Of a DNA stretch of 64,000 nucleotides, positions 9,177 to 44,119 are shown in pieces. The notes under the pieces were generated by a model that saw only the letters and a list, made by a program, of their open reading frames with translations, had not been told where the DNA came from and made no database searches. Positions within the stretch are counted from its first letter, which is position 1. Each line of letters opens with the position of its first letter. This DNA comes from Amoebophrya sp. A120 (lineage: Eukaryota; Protista; Dinoflagellata), in assembly GCA_905178155.1 (NCBI GenBank), contig CAJINV010000002.1:7737650-7801649 (forward strand). The letters run 5' to 3'. The position numbers and the translations under genes are program-made.

Positions 9177-9454
9177 GCCTTGAAAGTAGTAGACCCGAAG
9201 GAAGAACCCTAGAAAGTAAGAAGATGGGGATGATGCGCGCTCGCGGTCGCGCTCAACAAGTCGAAGTCTGCACTGCGCCGCATGAGTAAAACCGGTCGTT
9301 TCTCCTTCATAAAGCTAAATGAAAACGAAAAGAAAGCGCCAGTGCAAAGAAATGCAAATCTGCATTTTTAGGACGGCCACTACATACATACTCATAATAC
9401 ACAGAAACAAGCGCATCTTCTAAATTCTGGGGACAACTTCAGGGTACTTCTTGT

Positions 9455-15848: not shown

Positions 15849-16411
15849 TTATTCCGCTTTCAAAATTCGACGACGAGGGGCAGACAATTTCAAAATTTTC
15901 GCCAGTAGAGGTGCGCGGCTAGATTGTGGGTATGTATTATGCAGCACGTCCACGTACGAAAAGACTATTTGTGTATAATAAATTCGAAAGTGAAAAAATC
16001 AGTAAATCAGATCCGGCTTGTGTAGAACCAGTAGAGCCAAATTGCGTGAGTGTCCACGTAGATCTGCAGAAAGTAGAAAAAACGGCACCGTCGCTGGTAG
16101 AAGAAATTTAAAGTGAAATAGACCGTCAAAAATCAATCGAAGAAAAAAGCGCCCAGAGCGCGCTCTTGCATAGAATGGTGGATCGATGGCGCATCTGGTC
16201 GTGATCCATCCTTAATCACAAAAACGCGACCTGCTCATGTCATTTTTCGACAAGTAAAAAGCAGACGCTTCATCTTCGGGTTAACATTCTCGTAGGATGT
16301 CGGGCTACTCCTGCGTTCGCCTTTATCAAACCGGTGTCTTTATGTGTCGGTCCATGTAAGTAGTCCACCTCTTTCATATGCGTTCGCATTCTTATGCTCT
16401 TTAGATATGTT

Positions 16412-19400: not shown

Positions 19401-20237
19401 TCCCGCTGCTGAGTTTTTGCTCTTCTTGGAAGTACTAGACTTTTTCCCCGCCGCAACTCCACCATCTGCACTTATATCCCAAACGTCTACTACCACTCGG
19501 AAGCTTGGCTGGCCCTGATTTCTGTTCGAAACACCCGAGACAAACCGAATCTTGAATTCCAGCTGCAGAGCCGTGTCGAAAATCACCTGCTCTCCGTAGT
19601 TGGCCCCGTTGTGCTTGGTCCAGCGAAATTGAACCTCCGAATAAGGAGCCGAGACTGTGTGGTGGCGGTACAGCATGTTTTTCTCCTTTTCCGACTTCTT
19701 GCCGCGCCAGGCGAGGCCAAAGTGCAAAATGGATGCGGTGGTGGGGAGCATGGACGTTGTGCCAGAGGACCCAGCAGATGCAGACGTAGACTCTTCTCCT
19801 CTATAAAAATTTTCTACCGCAGCATCAGGTTCATTCGCTGTTGACGCGGATCCACCACCAGTTCCCGATTGTGACAACGCCAGTGAAAAGTAAGTTCCTG
19901 GCCGCGTTGTTTGCCACGAAGCCTGAGAGGCACGGTACTCGGCGGAAAATGGAAATTCCACTGTTTTCCTCGTCGCAGCCCCAGAAGAAAGTGACGGAAA
20001 CACTGGCTCCGTCGCGGTTCGCTGAATTGCTGGCCTCGTGGTCGCTGTGTGCTGGCCGAAAACATTGCTCCCGGTTTCCGGTGAAAAGAGCCCGAAACCA
20101 CCAAACAATGCGGTGCCATGAAGTAGCAAAGAGAAGCTCATCGTGCACGCAAGCACGATGGTAAAAATTCGGCTCGCATTGACTGCGGGGCTGCTAGGCC
20201 TGCCAAAATGCAGCCAAGCGAGAATGGACTCCAGCAT
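16412..20237 (-). CDS. MOGS: Mannosyl-oligosaccharide glucosidase (ER glucosidase I, GH63), 2 exons (20237-16716, 16555-16412), with an inserted hevein/CBM18 module
   Basis: Motifs PARAMFPRGFLWDEGFH, GWIPRE, NPPTL, LSSGLDDYPR, HFGYVNLLP, YGIRSL, YWRGKIWANLN, FHENYDPITGEG and FTGWT. N-terminal TM anchor. The spliced C-terminus ends QEEEL*. Confidence 0.93.
16556..16715 (-). other. Non-canonical IR intron (160 nt) with 5-bp direct repeat CGGAG
   Basis: Arms tgcaaaagtatcgta (16568-16582) and tacgatagttttgca (16694-16708), 14/15 complementary. ctccg at 16556-16560 and 16716-16720. AT-rich interior. Confidence 0.75.
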
Positions 20238-20689
20238 TGTCGTCGTCGTCACAAAAATCTACTGCAAGCACGGTATTATAGTTCATACATCTTCAATGAG
20301 AAACGGGATCACGTCGAATTTTCCATGTTCTTGCACATCAGAGTTAATACGGAAGTACTTTCGACTACGACTGCATGCAACATACTAATACTAAACTGGA
20401 GACAAACATATGCTTCTGCGCTCCGCTGCTGCATTGCGAATTGGAACAAAGAGGTTTTTATTCACCAACGAGCAGTCGGCCGCTACGTACTGTGCAAAAG
20501 CAAAGCAAGTCCCCATTTCATTTTCGTAGATCTAGAGAGCTCTCAGTTTGAATAACGACAGAAAGCAGGATAAAACACATCCAATGACAATTTGGGTTCG
20601 AATCTCAACAAGAGCGATTGCGATAGGGAAACGCCCGAAATAGCGTGTAGCAAATTTGCGCAACCGCGGACCACGAGGGCGAAAGGCCG

Positions 20690-27300: not shown

Positions 27301-28589
27301 GTCGGGTGTTGATCGCCGGTTTGATCAAACATCTTCATCATGGTCATCGATGTTTCCATGATCACACCTGATTTGATGCGCCAGCTATGCCGAATTCGTG
27401 TGATTGTTATTGGTGGTACTTACAAGCGGTCGACTAGAAGATATTCACACGTACTACCTTTTTAGTAAATCTAATACGTCAACTCGACTAGGACATCAGG
27501 CTGCTAAACACAAATAGAAATAATTCCGGATACGGATTTGAAACAATAAATCATGAGCCTAGTACTGATATATCTAGCGGAAGTCCGGAAAAAAGGCTCG
27601 CGTGCGCAAGCTCCTAGCAACCCACACCAGCGGTCGCAACTGGAGGAATAGGAAACAAAACCCTAGCGATATCCATGATCAAGACAACAACAATAACAAT
27701 ATATCCAGTTTTTATTGCAGCTTTCTTGAGCGCCTTGCTTCGACAGGATCCCAGCAAAATTTTTCATCCCTGTGTGTGCGGCTTCGGCCTATTGGAAAAA
27801 TATCTTTTCTTCGCGATCCGGCTACTGTGAGATCTACTTGAGAGGTCAGGTTCTTCTTGCGCCGTGAACGCAGGTACAGATGCAGAGACGGATCGCTATC
27901 TTTCGCATCATCACGGAAAGATACATGGCAGAAACTTGAAGTCTCATAGCGGAAGGCAACAGACTGACCGCGTGGATTTCGCAACCAACAACAACAGATA
28001 ACTTTTGGCTGGTTCCAGAGAGACGCTACAGGGGCAGAGGCAAGGATTACAGGCTCTGGCTTTTTGGTGGCCCGGACCAATTATACGCGGTGATGAGCAG
28101 CCTAAACCCATACAAGCAGGTGGCTTGCCAAGTGATTCTTTTCCTTCAAGTTCAAGATTTCCATTTCGCACGCACTGTTCGTTTTGCCTCGAGTTCTGAA
28201 ACATTTGTCAAGGTGTGTAAATTGTCAAGAAACAAGTCTGTGCTTGCTGGGCGCGTCAAAAACTTTGTCAGCATTTCTTCGAAACCTTTAAGCGCGTTTG
28301 TTAAGACCCACTTCGCTTTGTGAAATTGCGAGGTAAATCTGTAGGGTCCACCAGAAGTTTAGTACCCGGCTGTTGTAATGTAACTCCAGTAGGAGCTAGT
28401 ACTAGAGCGACGTTCGATTTTACAAGTGAGAGGGCAATTCTCGCCGTCCTCTTTTTGGTTACGACGAAGTACGGTACCTAGCAATAACAAAAACGTCAAG
28501 AACTTTTTGTTTTTCACAACTTTGGAGTCGGTGACTGGAGGTTAACACACAGACACACGACCATTCCAGAACTGTATACTCGACAAGAA

Positions 28590-28909
28590 TGAAACAGAAA
28601 ACCGACAGGGTTCTGTGACTGTGGATCGTGCAACGCATGAGAACACCAGGAAGATCACCAGCGACAGACTGCTACGCAGTCTCAGGAAAAAAGGTTCATC
28701 GTACTAGCAGAAAAGGCAACAAGCACAAGGCTTGAGCCAAACACAGGCAGCATTAGTTCATGTAGTCTCATCCGGATGAATAGGTATTGTATTAGCTAGA
28801 CCCAGTTAACGAGTACGACCCTAGGTAGACGAGTTAACTATCTCCTTAGCTTTCTTACGAGCACAAGCAACCACACGTCACGAACCGAAATTCCCTTGTG
28901 GAGTTAACA
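28590..28909 (-). repeat. 3' LTR
   Basis: Identical to 43739-44058 except g28903 versus a44052. Confidence 0.97.
28731..28741 (-). promoter_or_regulatory. DinoSL 3' core TTTGGCTCAAG in the 3' LTR
   Basis: Plus-strand cttgagccaaa equals the last 11 nt of the dinoflagellate spliced leader DCCGTAGCCATTTTGGCTCAAG, in element sense. Confidence 0.75.
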
Positions 28910-29048: not shown

Positions 29049-29732
29049 TCACTCGTCCAGTATGACGAAGGGCTCGCTCTCCATGTCAACTGCACCCGCC
29101 GCGTATTGTGCGCACGCGGGGTAGTCCTGCATGTTCTTCAGCTCACGGCGATCCTTTGCGGTGGCGTAGTAGACGAAGAAGCGCTGTAACTCAAGCAGCG
29201 TCAACTCTTCTTCGCACAGCTGCATCCTGATGTAGTTGCGCCCGCCGCTCGGACACAAGAGCTGCATGTGGTGGACCACTTTGGCACACTGCTTGGCGAA
29301 ACCGGCGTAGCTGTGCGACGGATCCAACGTGGCGTCCGCGATCAGTGCCCACAGCTCCGGCTGATCCATCCGCAACAGCCCACAGTATCCCAGCATCGTG
29401 CCGCTCAGCTCTTCGTACGCCGCGCTCTTTTGGTAGCGTCCCATCGGCAAGAAGATCTTCATTTGATACTGGTACTCCAATTCAAACGTCGGGATGCAGA
29501 GCAGGCGGGGCAGGTACCGGAACGCGAGACTGTTGCACACCGAGAACCAGGTCCGGGGAATCACCAAAGGAACGGGACCGGAAACACGTTTCCCGTCGAT
29601 GCAGCTCAACACCAGATACAGCTTCTTTCGCCGGCGCTCCATAAGCTTCTTGCAGTCCGACGCGTGGGTGTGGGGAAAGAGACCACACTTCGGGTACTCC
29701 TTCTTCTCGGTAAAAGGATTCCGTCCTGCCAT
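29049..29732 (-). CDS. Accessory ORF-C (227 aa) between pol and the 3' LTR, unknown function
   Basis: ATG at 29732 (MAGRNPFTEKKEYPKC...). Strong GC3 bias. Globular composition with no TM segment or signal peptide. Confidence 0.75.
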   Translation of the reverse strand: MAGRNPFTEKKEYPKCGLFPHTHASDCKKLMERRRKKLYLVLSCIDGKRVSGPVPLVIPRTWFSVCNSLAFRYLPRLLCIPTFELEYQYQMKIFLPMGRYQKSAAYEELSGTMLGYCGLLRMDQPELWALIADATLDPSHSYAGFAKQCAKVVHHMQLLCPSGGRNYIRMQLCEEELTLLELQRFFVYYATAKDRRELKNMQDYPACAQYAAGAVDMESEPFVILDE

Positions 29733-30284
29733 CGTGCTTTCTGTTCGTACTTCCAAATCCAAGTTCGTTCGCGTACTGTCTTCTTGGCTTTACACGGCGG
29801 TGCTACTACACCTCACTTTACAAAAACCAAAAAAGAAATCAGAAAATAGGAAAATTACTGTGGCTGTCTAGGTTTAACTTTTTCTAACGCGTCTGTCGGT
29901 AGAGCTTTTGGTTGTGACTTACAAAATTTTAGTTCGTTCTTACGGTGGGTCGTACTTCTCTCTGAAACATCATCCGCTGTGAAAATGGATTGATGAGTAA
30001 AATGATGTCAAAACAGGCCAGAAAGCTTTCGATGATTGAATTCAAAAACACAAAAATTTCAAGACTCATTACTCTCTTTTGTTGTGTCGTTTTCCTGTAA
30101 ATCTACCGGATCTGGGTCGTTTATTTCGTGCGAACTTTTTGTTTGATTTGTAGTGGTGAATCGTACAAGATTGCTGATGAAGATCTCTTTTTCTTTTAGA
30201 CTTTTCTTTGTTGAGGTTATTCATTTTACACTGTCATTCTCTGAAACTTAAACTAAAATCATACATAGAAAACAAGAAAACGGA

Positions 30285-33200
30285 TCAATTGCTGCTGTTT
30301 CCCGCGGCTGCGGCAGTGGCGTCACCTTCGGTTCCGTCCCACTGCGCGTCTTCTTTGTCGAGCTTCCTCAGCACGCCTACCGCGTCTCCTCGGCGGTCGC
30401 CCGGTCCCGACGGCCACAGCCAATGACCGTTCATAAGCTGTCGCAGTCGGCCTCGTTTTTCATTGACCGACGTCCACCATTTGGTTAAAACGTCGGTCAA
30501 ATTGCTGGGATCCGAAATGTGCAGCAGGTTCCTCCGCGTCTTCCTGTGGAGTTGTCTTGCACGGGCTATTGCGCGGAAAACACAATTGTCCGGCTCCATC
30601 GTCGTGGACCTTGACAGCAACCTTGCTATGACGGAACTGTTGTCAATAAAATCGTGTTGTTCAAAACCTTCTGCAGCAGCGATGATTTCCTCGGTTAAAA
30701 TCCCGTACGGAGTCGGCATTTCCATCTCGGCCAACCGCAACTTGACGCTCTCTGCCTGCTGCGTTCCGCGGTCGTAGCCGAGAGCTTCCGCACCGTAACT
30801 GCCGTCTACCACCGTGTCGTGTACGTGGCAATCCCAGTGCAGAATGGAGGAGCGAAGTGGTCGTGTTTTCTGGATCGAGTCCGCCAACTCCTTCTTGTCG
30901 GTCACCACGAGCAGAAAAGCTGTCATCGGCCGTAACTGCAGTTCGCGCGCTTCTGCGAGACGGGGATCATCCGCGGCCATGAACTCCGCCATGCCGCGGT
31001 CGAGCTTCTCTTTTTCTTCTCCCTTCTGCTTTTTAACCGGCTTGCTTTGAAAACTTCCGTCTGTTATCAACAAAAAGCACGGCTCGGAAAAGTCAAGCCA
31101 CAACCGCAGAAACGTCTGGTCCTGCTCTCTCACCCGCTTCATATCTTGCACCAAGGTGTTTACTCTGCACGCATTTGCGACAGTGCGCTGCTCATCGGCA
31201 CCAGAGGCGAGGGCGCGTTGGGTGTAGATGAACTCACAAAGTCGTTCCGCGACGTACCCCGTACTTCCTCTGACGCCGCGAAGCCGGGTTACTTCTGTTG
31301 GTGTTAGTTTTGCTGCTGGATCTGGTCTTCCACCGTTTATTGTGGCGTCCGTCTCGAATTCGCTTAATTCATCGATTTTTCGGTGCATCGAGAGGTCGAG
31401 AGCTTGGTGTCCGTCCACGGTGACAATCCTGATGCTTTTGCCGGTAAAGTTCGTCCATTCCGACGTTATTTCCTCGAAGCAACTGTCTTCAAGTGAAGAA
31501 AACGCTTTCTTCATTCTGGACTTGATCACTTCGAGGAGGCCCGGGACCGAACCGTCTGCCAGCACCAAGAAATCGCCCACGTGTGAGCCAAAAACTGCAA
31601 CTACGCGGCCTTCTATCCGCAATCTGTAGATGCAGGGTGCCATCGCGGATGGTGGCATGCCCTGGGCCACGAATTCTTCTCGCGACTTGCGATAAAAATA
31701 ATAGGCTGCGTCGAGCAAGCCATATTGTGGCACCCGGATCCGCAAACGCGAATCCGGGTTCAGGTCCAGGTTGTGCTTCTTGTTCAGGATCGCCAATGCG
31801 CCGTCCAAAGCTTCGGCGAAGCGCCCTTGCACGCGCGGAAAACGCATCTCCGGCATCTCCTCGTCCGTGTACGTCCTGCTCTCCTGGAAGGCCCGTGGTA
31901 CATCAAATACCATTCCTACGGTGCGCTTCCACTTTCCAGCGATGACGGACATGAGGCGCAAGTCCAACTCTGAAAGAGTCGGACTTGCATTCTCGGCCGC
32001 CTCGTCCGGCCTCTCTTGTAAGTGTCCCCCCGGAGCCCACCGGCATTTCAATTGCCAGTAGAACTCCGAGAGAAACTTCGCATCGAGAATAAATCGCGAT
32101 GTGAGCAAGAGTTTTTGCTTGCCAGACAGGTTTTCCCCGCTGTTCAGCGCCTTCACCACGTTCGGAAGCTCCTTGTCTTTCTTTGCCACCATCTGACCTT
32201 CTATTTCCTTGGTCAGCGCCATCTTGGTTTCCACCACTCGTAGCAACTCGCTCAGCACCGAGTAGGGCGTCATGTCGGCCATCTTCCTCGCGCTGCGGAG
32301 CCGTTTCCGCTGTGCCGCTGTCATGCCGGCATGGTGACTACTGATCACACTGTGTTCCGCGCGACCGTCTTCCGCGCCAAACGAATCAGCAAATTCGAAG
32401 CGGATGGCACCAGCGGTTTGTTCACGCATTTCTTGCGAGAAAAAGTAGCCGCCCTCGGCGGTGTAGCCTTCGTTGAGGTAGTACTTTACGCACGTACGGT
32501 TCTTCGAGGCGGCGTTGTTCGGGTTTAGTCGTTCCGCGTGGTGCTTTTCCCACACCAAGGTCATACCCTCGATCAGATCGCAGGGCGCCGCCCATCCTTC
32601 CGGCACCGGCTCGTCGTTCAGCATGTTCTTGACTGTGATCCATTCGCTGGCTTCCACGTTAATGCACTTGGCATTGTAACCCTTCACTTTCCGTACTACT
32701 TCTCGCAGTGCCATGCTGGGTTTGTTGACTGGCAGACCGAGCACTTTCGCCTTCCGTGCGTCCCACTTTATGTGTTTCAAAATGTCGAGTCCGCCAAACT
32801 TCTTCTCGCCCTCCTGCTGTGCTTCCAGTTTCAGGTTGTAGGATTGCACTTCCATTATGTCCATCACTGCGTTGAAGTCCTCGAGCGACAGATCGACCAC
32901 GTTGATCTCCGGTGCGCCTGCCAGCTCGTCAAGCTCGTCTTCGGGAATGAAGTTCTCCGCTTCTACTTGCTCGTCGCCGCCTTCCTCGGCGCCGTCATCG
33001 ACGTCTGCGGCGAGACCATCAGCGGGCGCACCTACTTCTTGTTCCTCCTCGGAGTCTGATGCTACTTTTTCGTCCTCTTCTTCACTACCGAGCAAGTCCT
33101 CCTCGGGCAGTCCGTCGTCTTCTTTTGCTGCAGGCTTTGGGGACGCGTTTTGTAGATCAAACTTTACAGTTTTCTTCACCTTGTCTTGCACCAGACGCTC

Positions 33201-36200
33201 CTCCTGCTGAGTCGTTTTCTCATCTTTGTTCTCGTACAGGAATTCTGGACGCGTCTTCTTCATGTCGCTGCGGAGCTTCTTCTCCGGCAGCCACATCCCC
33301 GCTGTGCACAGCTTGTCGTCGCTTTCGTCGCCGCAGAAGACATGTGGACACAGATTTACGCAACGGCATACTTCTCCGGGGAAGTTAGCCTCTACGTACC
33401 GCATTTCGGCGCAGTCGATGCATGGTATTAACCGGCTCTCATTTATTTTCGCACCGCGAAAGTCGTCTTTTGCGACGAGTCCGAAGTTCTCTTCGCGGTC
33501 CACCCGGTCGAAGTATCCCTTGTGCCGGATTTGTGCGAGGATCTGCGGGAGCTTGGGAATGTCCGACATAAACATCTCGACCGTGTCCGGGAGCGCCAAT
33601 GCAAGCTCGTGGTCGATCACCCTCTGCACTTTCTTCTTTGGGATCTTCTGGATAGCAGAGGTGGCGGAGAGTGGCTTCACTCCCCACACGATGCTTCCTT
33701 CCTCGGCCTGCTCGAGATGTCCTGGCACCCACTTCTCTCCCTTATTCTTCCACTCCACGAGGTCGCCGAGTACTGCTTCCGGGCCCCTGCCGTCTTCCGT
33801 GAGGCGCCGGAATAGGAGGCTCAATTCCAGGTGTAGCTCGGGGTCGAGAAACGATTCCAGAACTGCGATCCGCGCGGCGATTCGGTTTTCCGCCCGCTGG
33901 ATCTTACTTATCCGCGCGTCCTCCACGCTCCAGAAGCGGATAGCGGAATCCTCCGGTAGGTCGCCTTTCTGTGCCAACCGCCACTCCTCTCCTTTCTCTA
34001 GGTATGACGTCATCATTTTCCGCTCGCGGCGCGCATGCGCGAGGAGCCGGAGCAGCACTGACAGTGGCAGATCCCGCAGTAACGGGTGCCTCATTGCGGC
34101 GTGAAGGTTGGTCTTCAGATGCAGATGAGAAACTTCAACATCTGCCATTGCTGTCGCGGAATTCCCGGAAACTATTCTCACCCGAATTCCCGCCGCCAGC
34201 AGCAGCGTGGCCAAACCCTCGCTGATATTTTCGGATCCCGGATCCATGATAAGGATCCTTCCGATGTTGTCGAGATTTTCGCTTACAAACTTGCAAACCG
34301 CGTCGGCAGTGGGCTGACCGGAACTCAGCTTCTTATCGCTCTGGTCCGCGTCGTTCAGGCCTAACAGTTGGTCGTTTTCATTTTTGGTTTTATTGCCGAT
34401 GGCCAGTGGTTTCCCGTCTCCGTCCACCGGCGCGGGGTCGTCCGCGTAGTTCGCGCACTCAGCGAGTGTGATCCATTTCGGTCCGATGAAGTCCAGCCAG
34501 ATGTCGCCGCTGATCTTGCGCAGCAACTGCACTACCGTATTTGGCTGGATGAGCATGTCGCCAGACACAAAGGCTGTGTCTAACATACTCACGGCCGACA
34601 GGTCCACGGTGGACCAAGAGCCTATGGCTCGCTCCATCGGCCATGTCGTGTATCTCACGTTCGAGAAACTTTTCCTCATTGCCGCGTCGATCGCGGTCCT
34701 CAAATCCCGGAAGGGGATGCTGCGGAACTTCCCCTTCGCGAGCTTCGTCATGAGCTTGGCGTCAAGCTTACCTGCATGACGGTGCGTCATCGCTCTGAGG
34801 TACGCGTACACCTCGGCCTGGCGCCTCGTCAGGTTTCGGCGCGGGTCGAAAGGAACGGTCACGCTTTTGCCGTCGTGCGCGTCTTGGGTCGGTGATACCA
34901 ACCCGTATCCGAACCTTGTTACCCGGCCGTCCGATGTCGGCCGCTCACCATTCGCTGCGAGCAACGAAACCAGACTCATGTGTGCAGCTCGTTTCTCCGA
35001 TCTCAGTCGTAATTGATCGCCAACCAGTTCGGCAACGGCGACGGCCCCTTGCTTTCCGTTTCCGGTGAAAAGCGCGCAGCCAGCCCGGTACTTCATCAGG
35101 AAACGCTTACTCCGTTCGAACAGATCCTGATATTCCGGCATCTCCTTGATACGATCCTGCGCCCTCTTGGACAGGCCGGCTTCGCCTTCTTGGAACACCG
35201 ACTGAATGCTCTTCGGCACGGGGAACTGCAGCGTCCGCCCGCGTAGCTGCAAAGCGACATGCTTTCCTGAGTCCGCGGAGGCAACGCGCCGCCCGCTCAG
35301 AGCTGTAATCGATTCTGTGGCCCGCTTCCACTGCTTGATTTTGCTATTATTCGTGTACCTGGAGATCACAGGTATTCCGAAGCCACTGCGGTCGTGCACG
35401 GGCTCGCTTCCGCGCACCTGTTGGTCGAAGAAATACACCGCGACGATATTCCGGTGTGTTTCTCCTCGAAGTGGTAATTCTGCGTTGATTAAATTCGCGT
35501 TTTGGTTAGAAAAATTGTTGAGACTTTGTAGTTTGTTTCTGACTTCGTCGAGATCGTGTATTACTCTGGTTCGCGCCCGTATGTCGGCGCCCGTTGGTTT
35601 GGGTGCGTGGGTTGCACCGACCAAGATTCTTGCGCATGCGTACATTTTTGCTACATCAATTGCCATTCCGTTGTCGTTCGGCTTTTGATTCGCAGTAGAA
35701 GTTCCCGTTGGTAGCTCTCGGCTCCCGACTGGTGCTGCTGACGAAGAAGATGAAGACGAGGCAGGATTGTTCTGTGCCTCCAGCAGCGTGGGAAAGATTC
35801 TTGTATGGTCTGGATGTGGGAAAGATATCTGATTCGTGCTAGTTTTTCTGTTCTTCGCGGCCCGCATCACGCTTGCGGTAGTCGCGAATCCGGCTTCGAT
35901 CTGCTTTCGTACTGCTCGCAGAAAATCAGGAGTAAGTTCTTCAAAAATATCCATCATGCACTGGTTGTCGACCGGTTCCGTTTCCCACGCGCCGCAACGG
36001 CCGTGTCCGGTATCCGGGTCGATGCCGATTTTGAACTGGCGCATGAACTCCAATCCGATCAGGTTCGTTGCAGGTTGTGGCCACTCCCGGTCGTCGACCA
36101 CGATACAGTGCACCAGACCGGCTGGCACCTTGCAACCGTGCGGCAACGCCACAATTACTTCTGCAATACCAAGGACTTTAGTTGCGCCTCCCGCGGTAGA

Positions 36201-36662
36201 CGCCTCCAGCGGGACGTTGGTAAATTCTAATTTGATTCCGTGCTGCAGACAAAAACGGTGGCGCTCCTCCAAAGCCACCACTCCCATAAACAATAATCGG
36301 CTAAACCCGCTGTCGATCAGAAATTTTGCGATATCCTTCATGCTGGCGCTCATCACTTTCAGGTCTTTCAAGTCAAGTAGAATGCTCTGTATCACGGCTT
36401 TCAGGTGGACAGCCGCCTTGTTGACCGGGACTATTTTCTCCGGCTGGTTCACATATTTTTCTCGTTCAAATTGTTCTGTTTGCGGAAGAGGGTTCGGATT
36501 CTTCCTGCAGAGGTAGTACTCCTTCGGCCTGCTAATTTTCTTTTTGTCGATCAAGTTCTTCTTCACGATGCTGCTCACGAAAAGTTCGTTGTTAGTCGGT
36601 GGCTTTTCGTTTTGGTTTCCGGCCGCGTAGTCCGACTTGTCTACGGGCCGTCCCGGAAATCC
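30285..36662 (-). CDS. pol: Pol polyprotein (protease-integrase-RT-RNase H), in the -1 frame relative to gag
   Basis: PR: FLIDSGFS and NLIGLEF. IN: MLDTAF...IMDPGSEN-(D35E)-DVEVSH. RT: FDVPRAF, QYGLLDAA, SHVGDFL. RH: ITDGSF, GAEALG, IDNSSV, LTDVLTK. The frame is open from the slippery site at 36662. Confidence 0.95.
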   Translation of the reverse strand, partial: GFPGRPVDKSDYAAGNQNEKPPTNNELFVSSIVKKNLIDKKKISRPKEYYLCRKNPNPLPQTEQFEREKYVNQPEKIVPVNKAAVHLKAVIQSILLDLKDLKVMSASMKDIAKFLIDSGFSRLLFMGVVALEERHRFCLQHGIKLEFTNVPLEASTAGGATKVLGIAEVIVALPHGCKVPAGLVHCIVVDDREWPQPATNLIGLEFMRQFKIGIDPDTGHGRCGAWETEPVDNQCMMDIFEELTPDFLRAVRKQIEAGFATTASVMRAAKNRKTSTNQISFPHPDHTRIFPTLLEAQNNPASSSSSSSAAPVGSRELPTGTSTANQKPNDNGMAIDVAKMYACARILVGATHAPKPTGADIRARTRVIHDLDEVRNKLQSLNNFSNQNANLINAELPLRGETHRNIVAVYFFDQQVRGSEPVHDRSGFGIPVISRYTNNSKIKQWKRATESITALSGRRVASADSGKHVALQLRGRTLQFPVPKSIQSVFQEGEAGLSKRAQDRIKEMPEYQDLFERSKRFLMKYRAGCALFTGNGKQGAVAVAELVGDQLRLRSEKRAAHMSLVSLLAANGERPTSDGRVTRFGYGLVSPTQDAHDGKSVTVPFDPRRNLTRRQAEVYAYLRAMTHRHAGKLDAKLMTKLAKGKFRSIPFRDLRTAIDAAMRKSFSNVRYTTWPMERAIGSWSTVDLSAVSMLDTAFVSGDMLIQPNTVVQLLRKISGDIWLDFIGPKWITLAECANYADDPAPVDGDGKPLAIGNKTKNENDQLLGLNDADQSDKKLSSGQPTADAVCKFVSENLDNIGRILIMDPGSENISEGLATLLLAAGIRVRIVSGNSATAMADVEVSHLHLKTNLHAAMRHPLLRDLPLSVLLRLLAHARRERKMMTSYLEKGEEWRLAQKGDLPEDSAIRFWSVEDARISKIQRAENRIAARIAVLESFLDPELHLELSLLFRRLTEDGRGPEAVLGDLVEWKNKGEKWVPGHLEQAEEGSIVWGVKPLSATSAIQKIPKKKVQRVIDHELALALPDTVEMFMSDIPKLPQILAQIRHKGYFDRVDREENFGLVAKDDFRGAKINESRLIPCIDCAEMRYVEANFPGEVCRCVNLCPHVFCGDESDDKLCTAGMWLPEKKLRSDMKKTRPEFLYENKDEKTTQQEERLVQDKVKKTVKFDLQNASPKPAAKEDDGLPEEDLLGSEEEDEKVASDSEEEQEVGAPADGLAADVDDGAEEGGDEQVEAENFIPEDELDELAGAPEINVVDLSLEDFNAVMDIMEVQSYNLKLEAQQEGEKKFGGLDILKHIKWDARKAKVLGLPVNKPSMALREVVRKVKGYNAKCINVEASEWITVKNMLNDEPVPEGWAAPCDLIEGMTLVWEKHHAERLNPNNAASKNRTCVKYYLNEGYTAEGGYFFSQEMREQTAGAIRFEFADSFGAEDGRAEHSVISSHHAGMTAAQRKRLRSARKMADMTPYSVLSELLRVVETKMALTKEIEGQMVAKKDKELPNVVKALNSGENLSGKQKLLLTSRFILDAKFLSEFYWQLKCRWAPGGHLQERPDEAAENASPTLSELDLRLMSVIAGKWKRTVGMVFDVPRAFQESRTYTDEEMPEMRFPRVQGRFAEALDGALAILNKKHNLDLNPDSRLRIRVPQYGLLDAAYYFYRKSREEFVAQGMPPSAMAPCIYRLRIEGRVVAVFGSHVGDFLVLADGSVPGLLEVIKSRMKKAFSSLEDSCFEEITSEWTNFTGKSIRIVTVDGHQALDLSMHRKIDELSEFETDATINGGRPDPAAKLTPTEVTRLRGVRGSTGYVAERLCEFIYTQRALASGADEQRTVANACRVNTLVQDMKRVREQDQTFLRLWLDFSEPCFLLITDGSFQSKPVKKQKGEEKEKLDRGMAEFMAADDPRLAEARELQLRPMTAFLLVVTDKKELADSIQKTRPLRSSILHWDCHVHDTVVDGSYGAEALGYDRGTQQAESVKLRLAEMEMPTPYGILTEEIIAAAEGFEQHDFIDNSSVIARLLSRSTTMEPDNCVFRAIARARQLHRKTRRNLLHISDPSNLTDVLTKWWTSVNEKRGRLRQLMNGHWLWPSGPGDRRGDAVGVLRKLDKEDAQWDGTEGDATAAAAGNSSN
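36594..36662 (-). promoter_or_regulatory. Predicted -1 programmed ribosomal frameshift signal (G GAU UUC plus H-type pseudoknot)
   Basis: Heptamer at 36662-36656 in gag phase, then a 5-nt spacer. Stem 1 is CGGCCCGUAG/CUACG(C)GGCCG. Loop AGUCGG pairs with CCGACU (36599-36594). Confidence 0.8.
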
Positions 36663-39600
36663 CGGTCGAGGTACAAACCATCCTCGTCGTAGTCGTACTC
36701 CTCTTCTTCGACTGTGTCGTCCCCGCCGGCCGGGACCGTACCAGCCGTCGCGGCGGCGCTCGCCGCGTCGCTAACCTGAGCCGGATTCACGCTCAGGCTC
36801 GGTTGCTGCGTGGTGGTACTGGTCGTCGGTTCCGCAACGTACTCCCCGAGCCAAAACTCTTCGTCCATATCGCCCATTTCGATCCCCACCGTGTGCTGGA
36901 CTAGGCCGTCGGTATCCACAAATTGGATACTCGCGAAAAATTTTTTATTTCCACGTCGCTTGCCACCGCCCTTCTTACCCTTCTTGCCCCCCTTTCGGGC
37001 GTTCCGCTTGAACTTGCGAAAGAACTGGGCGGCCTTGATGCAGAGCGAGTACACGGGGCAGTTGTCACGGTCGTGGGACGGGCTTTTGCAGGTTGTACAG
37101 GTTCGCGCGCTGTTGATTCCCGGTTTATTAAAATTACATTCCGCCTTTTTGTGTCCCACCTTTCCGCAAGACCAACAAACAATGTTGCCCTTTGCGGGTT
37201 GTATTTTATCGCCGAATTTGGCGAACGCCGCCGCCATCACCTGCGGCTGGTGGACCTCTTCGCACATGATAACCTCCTCGGCGGTTTCGCGCCCAGCGCT
37301 GCAACCGCAGCCGCTCATTCCGAGGTGGTTGATGTGGAAGGAGAAAGCGTTGGCCGCTTTTGATTTCGACTTGTAATTGATAATGGCGGAACTGGTCCGG
37401 ATGTTCCGGTCGAGACTGACGTAAGCCATGATCTCCTTGAAGTACGGCCACGCACGCGTCAAGCGCATCCGTTTCTTCTTCTTCATCTTGCTGGTGGAGA
37501 ACATCATGACCTCGCGCAGGAACGCGTCGTCGATGGGAATGCGATCGCGAAATTCCGCGAGCAGCCGCAACTGGTCTACCTCGCTCTTCGGATTGATCGT
37601 AATCCCCATCGCAAGCGCCGCGCGCCGGAACTTGGCCAACTCCAGCCACATGTTGGCATTTTTCTTGTTCCAATCGCCTTCTTGCACGGACCAATTCTTC
37701 AGACGGTCGTTGATGTCGGATGCCATTTGGCCGTAGAGCTCGGTCAAGGAGGTGAAGTAGTTGAGGACGGTGCACGAGTTCAATTTGTCCCGGTCGATGT
37801 AGCCGAGCGCGAGGATGTCAGTTTTCTGATCCTCGGTGTGCGCTTCCATCCAGTGCTTCCGCACGAGGACGGTCTCTGCGCTCAGCGCCACCGCCCGGTC
37901 GGTGTCAATGCATCCCTTTAGGTGCATTTCTAACTCCATTTTCCAGCTCGCGAGCTTCATCGAGGAGCTGAATTTTGGTGGACCAGCGGCAACATACTGT
38001 CGGAAGTCGATTTTCGTCTTCTGTGCCGATGTCAAGGTCTTGCCCTCCGCGATGTGCGTCGACTCGAGCGGAACGTCGAAATTACCGATGGTACCGACGA
38101 GAATGCCATCCGCATTCATCACGAGCCCGATCTTCCCTTCTTCGGGGGTCGTGTTGGCCGACGGCCGGGCGGCATCCAGGTTCAGCCGCTTGACCTCCAC
38201 GCGCTCCTCCTTCAGGATGCCCTTGCCCTTTGCCTTGTTCCCATAACCGTCACGACCATCATCACCGTCGTCTCCACCGTGACCGCCGCCTTGACTGTTG
38301 TCGTTGTTGCCCCCGTTGCCGTTTCCACCGCCGGCACCACTACTACCGCCGCCTACCATGTTGGGCTGCTGAGTGTAGTGTTTCTCGTAATCTTTGGAAG
38401 ACCAGTTCTTCCGCTTCTTGATGTCATCGTCGTCGTCAACCGCGGATCCATTGTCAGAAGAAGTTTCGGATTCCGAAGACGAGGATGACGAACTACCGCC
38501 ATCGTCCCCACCGTCGCCTCCGGCGGCCGCCTTCTTCAACGCGCGCTTTCGCTTCTTCTTTTCGGCGCCGCTCGTCCTCTTACTCTTCTTTGTCGTCGTC
38601 GAAAAGGCGTCTTCTTCGGCCTCGGCCTGACCAGCTTCGGCCGCAGCGAATGCTGCCGCCGAGTATCCGGCCGCGATGGTAGCACGCTCCACTTCCTTCG
38701 GGTGCAAACCTGGCAAGAACTCGCTTGCCGCATAGTCCGGGTCTTCTTCGATGTAGTACTTCTTCTCGTTGCGGATTTTGCTACCGAGAGAACTGGCGAC
38801 GGACGCAGCGCGACTCCGCGTCGTCACGTCTTCCGCAACTTCGCCGCTCAGAATGTTGCATTCACGGGCTGTTGCCCCCGTCGATCCGATGTTGAAATGT
38901 TGCACCGTCGACTGCTGTTGCAAAGACGCAGTTGCAGCTGCAGCTCGTGCCTTCTCCTTTTCCAATGCCGCAAGTGCTTGATCGGTGGCATTCGTCGCAT
39001 TCTGCAGGAGGTGCACGTATCGGCCTTCCATTTCCTGCATCTGCTGTTGCATGTAGGTCTGCATCTGCGCCATATTCGCCTGGGCTTGCCCTTGCAACCC
39101 TGCCACGCTTGCGGACAGGTTGTCGGCTTGGTTCTGCAGTCCCTGCATGTTGTTGACGATTTGGTTTGTATTGTTGTTCTGGGTTGTCTTGATCTCGTCG
39201 ACTACCTGCTTGGCCGCGGTCAGCTCCGTCACCACTTTGTTATCGAGGTTGGCGATGTTGTCCTGCGCGGCCGCCACCTGCGCGGTCGTGTTGCTTGCCA
39301 GCCCGTCGAGCTCGGTTTTCGCAGCGCGCAGTTCCTTTTCATGGTCGTTACGCAGTTCCGACACTGCGTTTTGCGCGTCCATGGACGTGGCCGCCGCGCC
39401 AACCGCTGCTGTTGCTGCTCCGACGGCGGCCTGTTCGGCATCACGGGCATGTCCCATCCAGTTCTGTACGCCCTTGCGCATTCGGCCCTTGAAATCGGTC
39501 CATTCCTCGTACCAGCGTGCCCACTGCTCCTCGGACCAATGGCCGTAATTTGCGTTGTTGTATCCGTGCTCGGGTCCGTATGTGTCTGGACCATACGGCC

Positions 39601-39823
39601 CTTTCTTGCCCCCGTAGTTGTTCATCCATTTTCCTTTGTTTTTATTTCCATATCCGTTGTCGTTGGTACCCACTTGGTAGTTGTTGTAGTTGTAATTTTG
39701 CAGCTGGTAGTTTCCGTTCCGGCTGCTGCGCCGCGACGTCATCGATTCGTCGGACGTCGGGTTCCCATCCTGCAGCGCACGCTGTCCAGCGGCCGCTCCC
39801 TTGCCTTGCCCTGGACCTCCCAT
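36641..39823 (-). CDS. gag: Gag (1060 aa) with an N/Y/G-rich N-terminus, coiled coil and two CCHC zinc knuckles
   Basis: CWSCGKVGHKKAEC and CTTCKSPSHDRDNC followed by a basic patch. Located upstream of pol. Confidence 0.9.
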   Translation of the reverse strand: MGGPGQGKGAAAGQRALQDGNPTSDESMTSRRSSRNGNYQLQNYNYNNYQVGTNDNGYGNKNKGKWMNNYGGKKGPYGPDTYGPEHGYNNANYGHWSEEQWARWYEEWTDFKGRMRKGVQNWMGHARDAEQAAVGAATAAVGAAATSMDAQNAVSELRNDHEKELRAAKTELDGLASNTTAQVAAAQDNIANLDNKVVTELTAAKQVVDEIKTTQNNNTNQIVNNMQGLQNQADNLSASVAGLQGQAQANMAQMQTYMQQQMQEMEGRYVHLLQNATNATDQALAALEKEKARAAAATASLQQQSTVQHFNIGSTGATARECNILSGEVAEDVTTRSRAASVASSLGSKIRNEKKYYIEEDPDYAASEFLPGLHPKEVERATIAAGYSAAAFAAAEAGQAEAEEDAFSTTTKKSKRTSGAEKKKRKRALKKAAAGGDGGDDGGSSSSSSSESETSSDNGSAVDDDDDIKKRKNWSSKDYEKHYTQQPNMVGGGSSGAGGGNGNGGNNDNSQGGGHGGDDGDDGRDGYGNKAKGKGILKEERVEVKRLNLDAARPSANTTPEEGKIGLVMNADGILVGTIGNFDVPLESTHIAEGKTLTSAQKTKIDFRQYVAAGPPKFSSSMKLASWKMELEMHLKGCIDTDRAVALSAETVLVRKHWMEAHTEDQKTDILALGYIDRDKLNSCTVLNYFTSLTELYGQMASDINDRLKNWSVQEGDWNKKNANMWLELAKFRRAALAMGITINPKSEVDQLRLLAEFRDRIPIDDAFLREVMMFSTSKMKKKKRMRLTRAWPYFKEIMAYVSLDRNIRTSSAIINYKSKSKAANAFSFHINHLGMSGCGCSAGRETAEEVIMCEEVHQPQVMAAAFAKFGDKIQPAKGNIVCWSCGKVGHKKAECNFNKPGINSARTCTTCKSPSHDRDNCPVYSLCIKAAQFFRKFKRNARKGGKKGKKGGGKRRGNKKFFASIQFVDTDGLVQHTVGIEMGDMDEEFWLGEYVAEPTTSTTTQQPSLSVNPAQVSDAASAAATAGTVPAGGDDTVEEEEYDYDEDGLYLDRDFRDGP

Positions 39824-40489
39824 TTTGCGCTTCTACGGCTCGTTACACCAAAAGAGGTAGAAGGCGAAGATGATGAGAAGAAAACCGCCGAACACACAAA
39901 GTGCGACGATCTCGATTATTTTCCAGAAGAAGATGCTGACGGCGGTCTGCAGGCAGCCGCACATACGGGCTCCGTTCGTTCACTTCTTACGGGACTTGGT
40001 TAGTTGGGGATTAGTTTTGTTTTTCCAGTGCGTCGACTAGTCGAGCGCACCTAGCTGGGGAGACTTGCGCACTACACCTTAGTGCTGCTAAATCCTGGTT
40101 TTGATGGGCAAAGTCTTAGATTGTCGAACTCCGTGATTCCGGTCGGTTAGGCCTTTTTCGTTTGCGGGTGATACTGCAGATTGGCGGTTCTGATTTTGCT
40201 TCTCGGTTTCGACATAAACAAACGACAGACGAATTTTCGATACTGCGATTTGCGATTTGCGTTACGGCAATTTTGCGATCGAGAAACAAAAGACACCGAG
40301 TCGATACTTCGTTCTTTCGGGCGCAGCCGCCGCACTCCTATTTCTGCTTATTCTTCCAAGAAACAAAAAGGTGCACAGATTCGAAAGCTGAATTCCGGCT
40401 CCAAGAAATCAGAAAAGAGGAAAATCGAAACGGGCTTCATCAAACTTTCGTCACAAAAAACTTGCTGGTGCCGGTGCTCCTGTCCCCGG

Positions 40490-41317
40490 CTACTCCGCTT
40501 TCTTCCGGCACGGGTTCTGGCTGTACCGCCACCACGCCGAGTTGAAAGATTCGCTTGAAGATTCCGATGGTGTTGGTGGTCGGTCTTTTCTTACACGTAG
40601 CTCGTCGATTTGTTCCTGCTGGAGAATCTTCCAACGCCGACTCTCCGTGCAGTTTACGTCGCGATTAAGCGCATGGATCAAATCGAGGTCCTCGTCCAGT
40701 TCCTTACCGAATTCTATCACCGACATGAACAGGTCACAGAGCGGGTCGGTAATCTTGAGCCGCATCTTCTCTGGCGCCATGAGCAGTTTCCCGGTCCTGG
40801 TCGCCAGCAGCTTGACGCTCACGTCGCTGAGTTTCTTCTTCTCGAAATCGGGTAGTTTCGCCGTGGGAACGGTGTAGGCAATATCCTTCAGGATGGCTTC
40901 GTAGCCGAGCTCTTGGTTGATTTGCTCGCGCTGGGCGAGTAAGTTCTCGATCTGCTGGTAGTGTCCGAGATGCCATGGCACGGCATACCCGGTAAGGAAA
41001 TCTTTCAAAAATTGGGTAGTTGTTTCGGAATACTGATTTTCTGCGCTGGATTCGAAGATAAAATTGCTGCCGGAGCTGTTGCTGCTGCTCCGTCCGAGTT
41101 CACTGCTGTTTGCGTTCTGCGAAAGAAATGCTGGAAGAGGTAGTTCTTTTGATTTGTTGTCAAAGGTTGGAGAAGGCTTGTAGCTCGGCGAAATTACATT
41201 TTTGCTGTTTAAAAGTTGTTTGTCGCTCGACTCAGCTCTGGGCGTCCGCTGTGGTCCAGAACCGCAGAGTTTCCCGGGAGCGCTCCCGCGTCGGGCTTGG
41301 CTCGAACTCGGGTTCAT
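40490..41317 (-). CDS. Accessory ORF-B upstream of gag, unknown function (helical core ~41020-40570)
   Basis: First ATG at 41317. GC3-biased core FLKDFLTGYAVPWHLGHYQQIENLL... The start is uncertain. Confidence 0.6.
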   Translation of the reverse strand: MNPSSSQARRGSAPGKLCGSGPQRTPRAESSDKQLLNSKNVISPSYKPSPTFDNKSKELPLPAFLSQNANSSELGRSSSNSSGSNFIFESSAENQYSETTTQFLKDFLTGYAVPWHLGHYQQIENLLAQREQINQELGYEAILKDIAYTVPTAKLPDFEKKKLSDVSVKLLATRTGKLLMAPEKMRLKITDPLCDLFMSVIEFGKELDEDLDLIHALNRDVNCTESRRWKILQQEQIDELRVRKDRPPTPSESSSESFNSAWWRYSQNPCRKKAE

Positions 41318-41725
41318 TGTTCGCTCCGGGACACACCGCCGCACGGTGTCCGTGTGCACCGCAAATCCAGCAGCGCAGGCCGCTACGTTGGCCGCTCGTC
41401 TGGTTTCCGATGAAGTCAACGGGATCGGGCCCCAATGGGCCCGGAAATAAAAAAATCATGAATCCCAAAAGAAAAACGAAAAAAAAATTTTTGCACTGCC
41501 GCCCTATTGTGCCAAACCACTCCGCCGGGGCTCGCTCGATAGGAAATCTGTAGGCCCTAAAATAACGCCGGGGCTTTGTCAACAGGCTGCGGACCTGTGG
41601 GCTCCGGGGTTTTCGAAGAACTGCGCCACATGAAATCGAGCACGCAACTTTTGTTCGGGCAAACACAACGTCACCGAAAAAAAAGAAAAACACCGAATAA
41701 ATTTGCGCCAAAAAGTTGCTTTCTT

Positions 41726-41886
41726 TGCGACATGAGTGCGACACGGGTGCGACACCGGTGCGACACGGGTGCGACATTTTTCGGGTTCTTCCTGAAATCC
41801 CTAAGAAAAAAAAAACCACGGCCGAAAGCCGATTTTTTTTAATTATTTCAGATTTTTTGTCGCAACAAAGGCGATTTTTTGTCGCA
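41726..41886. repeat. Array of TGCGACA motifs: 5 direct copies at 11-bp period plus 2 inverted copies
   Basis: Direct copies start at 41726, 41737, 41748, 41759 and 41770. TGTCGCA at 41858 and 41880, each preceded by GATTTTT. Confidence 0.85.
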
Positions 41887-42106
41887 GAATTAATTGGCCA
41901 CTCGCCCGACCAAAACTTTCCCACCCAGCATCCCTCTCCCATCCCGAAGCACACACCGGCAACATGGGCTCCCTCTGCCGGCCCCACTCCAATCCCTTGC
42001 GCCCACGCCTGCTTTTCCCGCCCAACCCACAAACCCAAGACACACAACCAGAAAAAGAAAACGCACCAGCGAGCGGCTGCAAGAACTGCAAAAACCCTGC
42101 GAAAAC

Positions 42107-42991
42107 TTAAAAGCGCGAAAATTTTCCGGCTTTTGTGATTTTTTTGCTTTTCTGACTACTGGGGGCCGATCCCGTTGAATGAAGGGGTCTCCGTTCAGGC
42201 CGGCGTGGTTCCACACTCCGTCCTGCGTGTACTGCGTACCCGAGTACGCACTCGTTCCGTTGATTGTTCGCCGGCGTATAGCCGGTTACCTGCCAGAACA
42301 GGACCAGGCTGTTCAGACTCAACACCGGATTGAACGATGAATTCGCCACGCGTGCCTGCTGTTCCTGGTTCCAGTAGAACAAGAAGTCCTTCTCCGCGCT
42401 CACGGTTGTCCCGAACGGCTTCGGGTGTCCGAGAAACAACGGACCCGGGAAGAGGCGACTCAGGCTGAAGACACCAGCCGGAGGCTGCCCGTTGTCGTAC
42501 GGAAACTGTGCTTCAAGTGCCTCGCGATCGCCGTAGTGCGTGGTCGGGTTTGGTTCCCGACTGTCGTACAGCACCAGTTTTCCTTCCGTGAGAGCCGGAC
42601 CTTCTTCTCCGAAGCTGTCCTGCAGGTCCAACTCTAATCCTGGCGCTTCCAACAGCGAGGGCACGTACCGTCCGAGATGGAAGGGCACCTTCACGATCTG
42701 GTAGACGAAAGTGCCGGGCAGCGGGCTGCAGATGCAGAGCGTTTTTCCGCCCCACAAGTGGTGGCTTACCCGCTGCAGGTCGGATTCCGGTATCCACGTC
42801 TTTAACCGGAAATGCACCGCGCGCGCGTTCGGTGGTGGTTTGTCAAAGTGGCCGCTGTAGCGCCACACGAGGCACCGGTCGCCGAGCTGACAGACGAGAA
42901 CGGGTTTTCCGTCGTTTGCGTCCAAAGCAGCGATCAGCTCGTTGAGATTTGCTTCGTAGGTTCGGAGTCGCTTTGGTGCGATCAGGCTCAT
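42107..42991 (-). CDS. Accessory ORF-A upstream of gag (~294 aa), unknown function
   Basis: ATG at 42991 (MSLIAPKRLRTYEANLNE...) marks the onset of GC3-biased, globular sequence within the 466-codon frame. Confidence 0.65.
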   Translation of the reverse strand: MSLIAPKRLRTYEANLNELIAALDANDGKPVLVCQLGDRCLVWRYSGHFDKPPPNARAVHFRLKTWIPESDLQRVSHHLWGGKTLCICSPLPGTFVYQIVKVPFHLGRYVPSLLEAPGLELDLQDSFGEEGPALTEGKLVLYDSREPNPTTHYGDREALEAQFPYDNGQPPAGVFSLSRLFPGPLFLGHPKPFGTTVSAEKDFLFYWNQEQQARVANSSFNPVLSLNSLVLFWQVTGYTPANNQRNECVLGYAVHAGRSVEPRRPERRPLHSTGSAPSSQKSKKITKAGKFSRF

Positions 42992-43726
42992 TATTGCTAA
43001 CTTAAATTTTGTCGATATTCCGCTTCCGTTTGGCCAAATCCGATAGACTATTCCGAGATGTTTGTTTTTGTTATTCCTTTTTGTCGAACTGCTGCGTCGT
43101 TCTCGATAAACTTTTCCGCTTTGCGATTGTTTATCCATGAAAAATCCGTTAAAGATTTTTCTCTCAAGCGATTGCGATTTGAAGATAAAATTGCACGAAT
43201 TCCGTTTTGCGAAATAGACGATCTTTCGATGGATTTGTTCACGAAAAGAAACACTTCCGGGCACTTGACGATGCAGTCGAGGAAGTGGTGCTCGTTTACG
43301 AAACCGGGGTCCAACTGCCCCGGACGAATCTGGTTGGATGACGCAACTTGTCATGGTGGAAGAGGAAGCCGTGGAACAAATCTCCTCTTCCCGCGGTTCG
43401 ACGTAACTTGTCGGAATCGAGGTGACAAAACTTGTCATGCTGGTGGCGTCAACTTGCCGGAATGTTGGCGTACACTTGCCGATGGGATGGCGTAACTTGC
43501 CGATCACACATTCATCGCTGTGTTTTGAAGCTCTTCACTGGCTGAAAAAGACCTCACTTGTCGTGTTCGCCGCGCCGTGTACTGGCTCCGCGGCGGGTAG
43601 TCAAACATGTGGTCGCCGTGGAACGGAAGCATATGTTTTGACACAATACTGACATAGCTAGTTTACCCTTCTTGTAGTCGCTAGTGACTCCCGTCACTGG
43701 TGATCAAATGGTTGCATAACCTCTGT

Positions 43727-43737
43727 CTCCGCTACCA
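43727..43737 (-). promoter_or_regulatory. Primer-binding site TGGTAGCGGAG (initiator tRNA-Met type)
   Basis: Lies 1 nt inside the 5' LTR boundary. Complementary to a tRNA 3' end CUCCGCUACCA (U72, A73, CCA), as in eukaryotic iMet tRNAs. Confidence 0.85.
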
Positions 43738-43738
43738 C

Positions 43739-44058
43739 TGAAACAGAAAACCGACAGGGTTCTGTGACTGTGGATCGTGCAACGCATGAGAACACCAGGA
43801 AGATCACCAGCGACAGACTGCTACGCAGTCTCAGGAAAAAAGGTTCATCGTACTAGCAGAAAAGGCAACAAGCACAAGGCTTGAGCCAAACACAGGCAGC
43901 ATTAGTTCATGTAGTCTCATCCGGATGAATAGGTATTGTATTAGCTAGACCCAGTTAACGAGTACGACCCTAGGTAGACGAGTTAACTATCTCCTTAGCT
44001 TTCTTACGAGCACAAGCAACCACACGTCACGAACCGAAATTCCCTTGTGGAATTAACA
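43739..44058 (-). repeat. 5' LTR (contains the DinoSL core at 43880-43890)
   Basis: 319/320 identical to the 3' LTR and adjacent to the PBS. Confidence 0.97.
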
Positions 44059-44119
44059 AGAACATACTTTGTCTTTCAGAGAAAGTAGGATCCGATAATA
44101 AAACAGCCGTCTTCACGAT

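Follow-up and report, generated by a model that had tools for sequence, protein, structure and literature searches.

How does an LTR retrotransposon define the ends of its RNA in a host which replaces the 5' ends of its messengers by trans-splicing? LTR elements normally delimit R through start and poly(A) sites of their own. A trans-splicing host breaks this usual logic, and a documented case, Cer1, avoids the splice (PMC3315495; papers are cited by PMC number for those excerpts of them that were available). The question is raised by Amoebophrya sp. A120, a parasitic dinoflagellate with co-oriented gene blocks and a truncated dinoflagellate spliced leader (DinoSL) on at least 37.8% of its transcripts (PMC7789003): within a window of 64,000 nucleotides, as we call the whole stretch of DNA analysed, lies a young Ty1/copia retrotransposon with the 3' half of the host's spliced leader (SL) in its LTRs.

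The element and the leader motif in its LTRs

The retroelement spans 15.5 kb of the minus strand (Table 1) in a block of long minus-strand ORFs, which makes up the window; a neighbouring phosphomannose isomerase matches a protein of Amoebophrya sp. A120 at 100% identity. Its layout, LTR-PBS-gag-pol-PPT-LTR, resembles Ty1/copia, and several features of that group are present: two direct LTRs bounded by TG...CA with PBS and PPT, the CCHC knuckle of gag and, by way of homologues, RVT_2 (PF07727). The primer-binding site (PBS) TGGTAGCGGAG we take to be of the initiator tRNA-Met type. Both gag knuckles are visible in the sequence, while the zf-CCHC profile match (E 0.014) stays below the Pfam cut-off, and the A120 gag is 28% identical to that of a relative (P0123). 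No direct Pfam match to pol was obtained; RT-RNase H lies at the end of the ORF, and the order PR-INT-RT-RNase H was read by eye from motifs, without a profile match. Used as a query, the RT-RNase H region of pol retrieved 60 relatives; 11 of the 14 closest ones looked up belong to Amoebophrya AT5.2 or A25, and RVT_2 was present in 18 of the 26 relatives scanned, including P0134 and P0137, so that by transitive homology the element can be regarded as a diverged Ty1/copia. It departs from Ty1/copia elements, as far as the available excerpts describe them, in the SL tail of its LTRs, its length, three extra ORFs, the lack of a direct Pfam match and its target-site duplication (TSD).

A TSD of 5 bp is usual for Ty1/copia, and the 4 bp found here deviate from a trait that is typical, not defining. 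An intact RT motif of the YxDD type is lacking, the A120 copy having HVGDF and most homologues HVDD, and as the role of the aspartate in this motif is known, the A120 copy probably is inactive. HVGD in place of HVDD occurs in four Amoebophrya pols (A120 at 31583, P0123, P0130 and P0137), which are scattered in a quick tree, and is absent from all more distant matches in which the RT motif was found; it is a recurrent change of a catalytic residue.

About 4 kb (39833-43726) holding two ORFs lie ahead of gag, and a third ORF (29049-29789) follows pol. For none of the three was a Pfam or PHROG family found, and single-sequence folds reached a pLDDT of 34 (ORF A) and 32 (ORF C). A 43-nt inverted repeat (41416-41458 and 42136-42178) flanks 677 nt between ORF A and a CCHC-coding stretch; it possibly represents an introner within the element, splitting one gene. 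Elsewhere in the window, a host GH63 glycosidase ORF (16401-20258) has an internal chitin-binding-like stretch below the Pfam cut-off, a cysteine-rich host ORF (5619-9314) contains tandem repeats of 36, 30 and 255 nt, and the segment 20001-22000 is GC-rich (64%) with no recognised gene.

Table 1. Features of the A120 retroelement, in window coordinates
Feature	Position	Strand	Remarks
5' LTR	43739..44058	-	320 bp, TG...CA; 319/320 identical to 3' LTR
3' LTR	28590..28909	-	320 bp, TG...CA
SL core TTTGGCTCAAG, 5' LTR	43880..43890	-	LTR nt 169-179; putative trans-splice acceptor and start of R
SL core TTTGGCTCAAG, 3' LTR	28731..28741	-	putative landing site of minus-strand transfer
AG-free zone upstream of motif	43891..43915	-	contains CTAAT at 43905-43901
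Primer-binding site TGGTAGCGGAG	43727..43737	-	1 nt past LTR; same PBS after CA in metagenome LTRs
Polypurine tract (PPT) GGGGGAA	28911..28917	-	precedes 3' LTR
TSD TTCT (4 bp), left copy	44059..44062	-	
TSD TTCT (4 bp), right copy	28586..28589	-	
gag	36641..39832	-	1063 aa stop to stop; two CCHC knuckles
pol	30285..36770	-	2161 aa; overlaps gag in another frame; RT motif HVGDF at 31583
Extra ORF A	42107..43534	-	between PBS and gag; no family found
Extra ORF B	40490..41455	-	no family found
Extra ORF C	29049..29789	-	between pol and PPT; no family found

The motif TTTGGCTCAAG consists of the last 11 bases of the host mRNA leader, and it is found in both LTRs, exact and in sense, at the minus-strand positions for which an earlier note on this DNA had claimed it (43890-43880 and 28741-28731). 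These are the only two matches in the window, even when one mismatch is allowed, and since the LTRs are identical at 319 of 320 positions, the two copies count as one event. The chance probability of 1.5e-4 put forward in that note agrees with dinucleotide shuffles of the LTR, 15 of 100,000 of which hold a 3' suffix of the SL of at least 11 nt in sense (68 of 100,000 for any 11-mer of the SL on either strand). At the level of the window, the expectation at up to one mismatch (mean 1.96, against 2 observed) is that of chance; what carries the case is the exactness of the match, its position within the LTR and the fact that it recurs. The match ends at 11 nt, is followed by CC and includes nothing of the 5' half of the leader, which rules out both an SL RNA gene and a retrogene relic of 15 nt. 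The former was rejected on the length of the match, CC in place of the GT donor and the lack of an Rfam match in the window, and a relic of the DinoRL type because the 11-mer sits inside an LTR and not, as a 15-nt relic, directly before a host CDS. The distance from motif to PBS is 142 nt in A120. The fold of the whole LTR is no better than that of shuffled sequences (z -0.6).

Strain AT5 has the canonical leader in its genome (PMC6482013, section 6 and Table S3). Scaffold1358 of AT5 contains two identical same-strand 15-mers ending in the 11-nt core, at 27947 and 33550 and thus 5603 bp apart (PMC6482013), spaced as an LTR pair would be, and scaffold286 contains two full leaders 8804 bp apart (PMC6482013, Table S3).

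Recurrence in metagenome LTR families

Metagenome contigs were scanned for the motif at 101-161 nt before TGGTAGCRGAG; as this pattern demanded the motif, the resulting counts give no frequency of the motif among dinoflagellate copia LTRs. Of the 104 loci found, 95 have the G form of the PBS and 9 the A form. CA stands directly before the PBS in 81 of the 95 G-form loci (1 in 16 expected) and within one nucleotide of it in 84, and directly after the PBS a C, a base outside the scan pattern, is found in 93. Given that neither of these flanks was part of the pattern, most loci are true LTR-PBS junctions. With the A form, CA lies within one base in 2 of 9 loci, and there are chance loci as well (three without either mark, two among bacterial genes).

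The 104 loci fall into 55 clusters, of which the 36 with CA and the 12-base PBS are considered here as LTR families. None of the 36 showed similarity to the A120 LTR in blastn. The motif is thus conserved at an equivalent place and in the same orientation in many unrelated LTR families, which is what the earlier note had asked of it; as 22 of the 36 are linked by protein similarity, 36 families do not mean 36 origins. Among 50 ORFs scanned, RVT_2 was found in nine upstream ORFs and zf-CCHC in nine downstream ones, and a PPT followed by TG is clear in several loci (for example L005, L018, L031 and L078), though the detector also gave poor candidates and blanks. Reverse transcriptases were recovered from 15 loci in 6 clusters, and a quick RT tree resolved three deep lineages: A120 with the other Amoebophrya sequences, L058 and a clade of 14 rows. 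In blastp against the A120 RT, the metagenome RTs gave no match at E 10. Judging from the leader and the shared PBS alone, we infer that the hosts of the metagenome families are dinoflagellates.

Further peculiarities of these loci deserve mention. The RT motif of L005 is HGDD, and in L029, L030 and L075 long ORFs of no known family precede the LTR. A second partial leader follows within a few bases of the motif in L057, L058, L066, L083, L085, L088 and L100; these second copies vary within one family, and slippage would also explain them. L042 has a further leader copy 90 nt downstream. Only 5 of the 36 families have the leader's Sm-like ATTTTGG intact, and the base after the motif is G in 3 of 36 and part of a GT in 0 of 36.

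By protein, no locus related to A120 was found in viral or metagenome contigs. The viral contigs yielded 0 hits to the combined motif and PBS pattern, as did the reverse-complement control (0), and the motif, at 10 or more of 11 matches, was upstream of 0 of 112 PBS-like sites in 111 loci; these sites probably are mostly chance 14-mers and serve as background, not as an LTR census.

Candidate acceptor signals, the putative U3/R boundary and competing explanations

If the motif were spliced at its terminal AG, other AGs should be scarce before it. With one locus taken per cluster (36 clusters), the 20 nt before the motif contain AG at 10 of 720 positions (Fisher 4e-11) and the last 15 nt at 6 of 540 (Fisher 6e-10), as compared to 316 of 4608 (~7%) for the flanking windows; such a depletion arose in 0 of 20,000 composition-preserving shuffles. 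AG is the most depleted of the 16 dinucleotides, GA being little affected (observed/expected 0.87). The 20-nt zone is free of AG in 27 of 36 families, compared to 7-12 of 36 in six control windows, and the median distance to the previous AG is 33 nt compared to 17 nt for control AGs (36 nt in A120). The effect persists in 24 families (7/480, p 1e-7), that is, after seven clusters of the large RT clade and five near-full leader copies are set aside. A terminal AG with an AG-free zone upstream is present, as in 3' splice sites, and the exclusion of AG before the motif indicates selection.

Other signals of an acceptor are less evident. AAG is a less usual acceptor than YAG, and no pyrimidine tract precedes the motif across the 36 families. 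The CTAAT which the earlier note had seen about 22 nt upstream of the terminal AG does lie there (43905-43901); its proposed role as a branch point found no support, the consensus not being enriched across the families (CTRAY in 5 of 36, against 2, 5 and 4 in control windows, a consensus which may not be that of the host). YTNAY occurs in 21 of 36 families and in 8, 17 and 12 of the controls.

The extent of the leader copies is informative as well. In 28 of the 36 families there is no match to the SL beyond the 11-mer, and the base before it is the T of the leader in only 8. Nine of the 55 clusters extend into the 5' half, with 8-10 of the 10 upstream bases. The internal AG of the leader, a site of re-splicing in dinoflagellate retrogenes (PMC12014239), is lost in all seven longer leaders that differ at one or two of the ten 5' bases (7/7, p ~9e-5), by several different substitutions; four of these seven copies lack the CA mark. 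It is kept in L042 and L076, which have a perfect leader.

Our main reading, to which we assign a probability of roughly two in three, is that the final AG of the motif would serve as a trans-splice acceptor, the host leader supplying both the start of R and the homology for strand transfer. The earlier note had offered two interpretations, trans-splicing at this AG or a start on an encoded SL mimic; the first fits better and the second less well, because 28 of 36 families stop at the 11-mer and the longer copies lose their internal AG. Transcription beginning at or just before the motif, on an imitation of the SL or a core promoter of the TTTG type and without trans-splicing, is in our estimate rather unlikely. 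The nine extended clusters, two of them perfect, would suit such a mimic, and an RNA virus of Symbiodinium has been suggested to mimic the SL, TTTT taking the place of TATA (PMC9651163). A mimic should, however, retain the cap-proximal half, which most families do not possess, and a promoter predicts neither a specific depletion of AG nor the loss of internal AGs.

Where in the LTR the motif lies can be asked from the divergence of related copies. For 273 within-cluster pairs, which are non-independent and mostly from one clade, identity was compared over 40 nt on each side of a junction. Among pairs at least 85% alike upstream of the motif, 43 of 91 are less than 60% alike downstream of it, while the same break was seen in 0 of 24, 0 of 30 and 0 of 22 pairs at three other junctions. 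With the two sides exchanged, the motif does not stand out (1 of 22, compared to 9 of 30, 5 of 91 and 0 of 23 elsewhere), and much of the asymmetry may thus come from fast change of U5. A sharp break of identity between putative U3 and R-U5 sequence at the motif supports the view, expressed in the earlier note from its mid-LTR position, that it marks the U3/R boundary; a start site at the motif would place the breakpoint there equally well. Two clean mosaics, and only two, were seen. L096 equals L074 on its upstream side (80/80) and L064 on its downstream side (first 60 nt identical), and the second case is L102 in relation to L014 and L092; two downstream types occur with two unrelated upstream types, changing over at the motif, as would be expected if minus-strand transfer lands there. 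Chimeras of amplification would be the alternative. An 11-base overlap is shorter than the usual assembly words.

In the trans-splicing reading, the cycle might run as follows. RNA polymerase would enter the 5' LTR either from U3 or by way of the block of host genes in the same orientation, and the host SL would be joined at the terminal AG, re-creating TTTGGCTCAAG at the 5' end of an RNA that would be capped like a host mRNA. In LTR elements the tRNA-primed minus strand copies U5 up to the RNA 5' end and then jumps to the RNA 3' end. Here, the 3' end of the strong-stop DNA, complementary to the SL tail, would pair with the 11-mer ending U3 of the 3' LTR, so that the motif would be restored from the host SL at every round of copying, and selection would act against competing AGs in the zone upstream. 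This scheme is built on sequence (the motif, its placement and recurrence, AG depletion, loss of internal AGs and identity breaks), from which we infer the RNA ends. A more far-reaching and tentative version, possible though we would not bet on it, uses both LTRs: the genomic RNA would be excised from read-through transcripts, with the SL joined at the 5' copy and cleavage at the 3' copy. The suggestion that the element captures genes by switching onto SL-bearing host mRNAs was not borne out, as no host homologue was found for the three extra ORFs and no captured gene was seen. Its direction also had to be corrected: strong-stop DNA gains nothing by jumping to the 5' leader of a host mRNA, whereas a host cDNA, on reaching the leader, could jump into U3.

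Could the motif be a neutral fossil, left by a past reverse transcription of SL-capped element RNA into the LTR, and now without a role? In dinoflagellates, relic leaders left by the recycling of mRNA are a common feature (PMC12014239, PMC7245778), and the short tandem second copies after the motif in seven loci would agree with such an origin. We regard this as unlikely: the exclusion of AG implies selection, the retrogene relics are 15-mers after an internal AG and differ from the 11-mer (PMC12014239), and the exact 11-mer, its exactness being set by the scan pattern, persists amid dissimilar flanks and with RTs that have no blastp match to A120.

A further source of data was run X3, which provides contigs only, of RNA type by guess, and contigs cannot show RNA ends. 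Three raw-read runs (X8-X10), in which this organism is absent, gave 0, 0 and 38 reads, the 38 being spurious. Depth is about 13-16 over the 3' end of a host gene and the LTR, and the element interior has none save for one spurious piece of 34 bases, hence no genomic RNA of the element was sampled. One contig reads through the motif unspliced, and the sequence to either side of the motif is genomic; this contig has three differences upstream of the motif, and its flank comes from another locus. Among the X3 matches listed, none has a loose SL end at the motif. The host-gene contig stops at 44056, which would be the branch-off point expected for an element-free allele, and the first three bases of the LTR equal the three bases after the right TSD. 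In another contig (depth 7), LTR nt 28 is followed directly by nt 301, so that 272 nt (43759-44030; LTR nt 29-300) are skipped, and the sequence runs on into the flank on the far side of the 3' LTR. The skipped stretch has GT..AC ends, which pair as a stem in the predicted fold. The skip fits an intron of the non-canonical kind bounded by inverted repeats (IR), whose excision would take out the greater part of a solo LTR or the entire 15-kb element, and LTR-derived introners (PMC12130899) and IR-bounded non-canonical introns (PMC7789003) are described for Amoebophrya A120; these concern removal from host RNA, not the SL motif. The setting may be a host 3' UTR, and the contig may also reflect a DNA deletion or a library artefact.

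The X3 contigs, spanning the LTR and the upstream host gene and not the element interior, would suit a signal whose effect is confined to the RNA 3' end or to host read-through RNA, with a genomic RNA that starts elsewhere, as in Cer1 with its SL1-spliced subgenomic but unspliced genomic RNA (PMC3315495). We hold this to be very unlikely, as the spelling of the SL tail and the mosaics joined at the motif would then be left unexplained. That the A120 match arose by chance is scarcely credible, in spite of the many windows scanned and a recurrence known from metagenome families and not from the clade of A120 itself, in view of p ~1.5e-4, the agreement of its 142-nt PBS spacing and 36-nt AG-free distance with the 36 families and the 0 of 112 PBS-like sites in viral contigs.

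Known systems and significance

Several known systems share part of this picture. Dinoflagellate retrogenes of the DinoRL type also carry the 3' part of the SL encoded in DNA, through reverse transcription of trans-spliced RNA (PMC12014239, PMC7245778, PMC3229502), but there the relic is a 15-mer before host genes, exposed by re-splicing at the internal AG. LTRs of the A120 type instead have an 11-mer in the middle of both repeats, avoid the internal AG and appear to be under selection. Cer1 of C. elegans, a Ty3/gypsy element, is likewise an LTR retrotransposon that has an SL acceptor and whose host practises trans-splicing; SL1 is found only on its 2.4-kb spliced RNA, the 8-kb gag-pol RNA skips the site, and the available excerpts of the paper describe no SL copy in the LTR (PMC3315495). 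A +ssRNA virus of Symbiodinium resembles the A120 element in that a parasite genome bears the leader of its host, with DinoSL at the transcript 5' end (Levin et al. 2017, via PMC9651163). It differs in being an RNA virus with neither LTR nor strand transfer, for which mimicry in translation was proposed (PMC9651163).

We found no published report of a leader inside LTRs, though a prior mention may exist in subscription papers or in supplements published as pictures. The available excerpts of PMC4558846, PMC9399869, PMC3101222, PMC5890265, PMC3942190 and PMC12584245 do not describe it, nor do those of PMC3229502, PMC3315495, PMC6050394, PMC9651163, PMC7245778, PMC12130899, PMC12014239, PMC7789003 and PMC6482013.

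The SL tail in Ty1/copia LTRs is real and apparently widespread, and the sequence evidence points to an acceptor at the U3/R boundary, for which the tail would be a simple marker. Many genomic matches to a 'truncated SL' may accordingly be LTRs and not retrogenes. A copia RT is suspected behind dinoflagellate retrogenes, by a mechanism described as unknown (PMC6050394); the present finding makes it testable which RT makes them, and how. If the two-LTR version were true, R would be the 11-nt leader tail, common to all families and to host cDNAs that reach the leader; with such a universal R, unrelated elements could swap U3 and U5, and host cDNAs would gain access to the copia pathway, a concrete route for the recycling of dinoflagellate mRNA. 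Should the trans-splicing reading hold, the use of the host leader as strand-transfer homology throughout a lineage would constitute a new link between splicing and reverse transcription.
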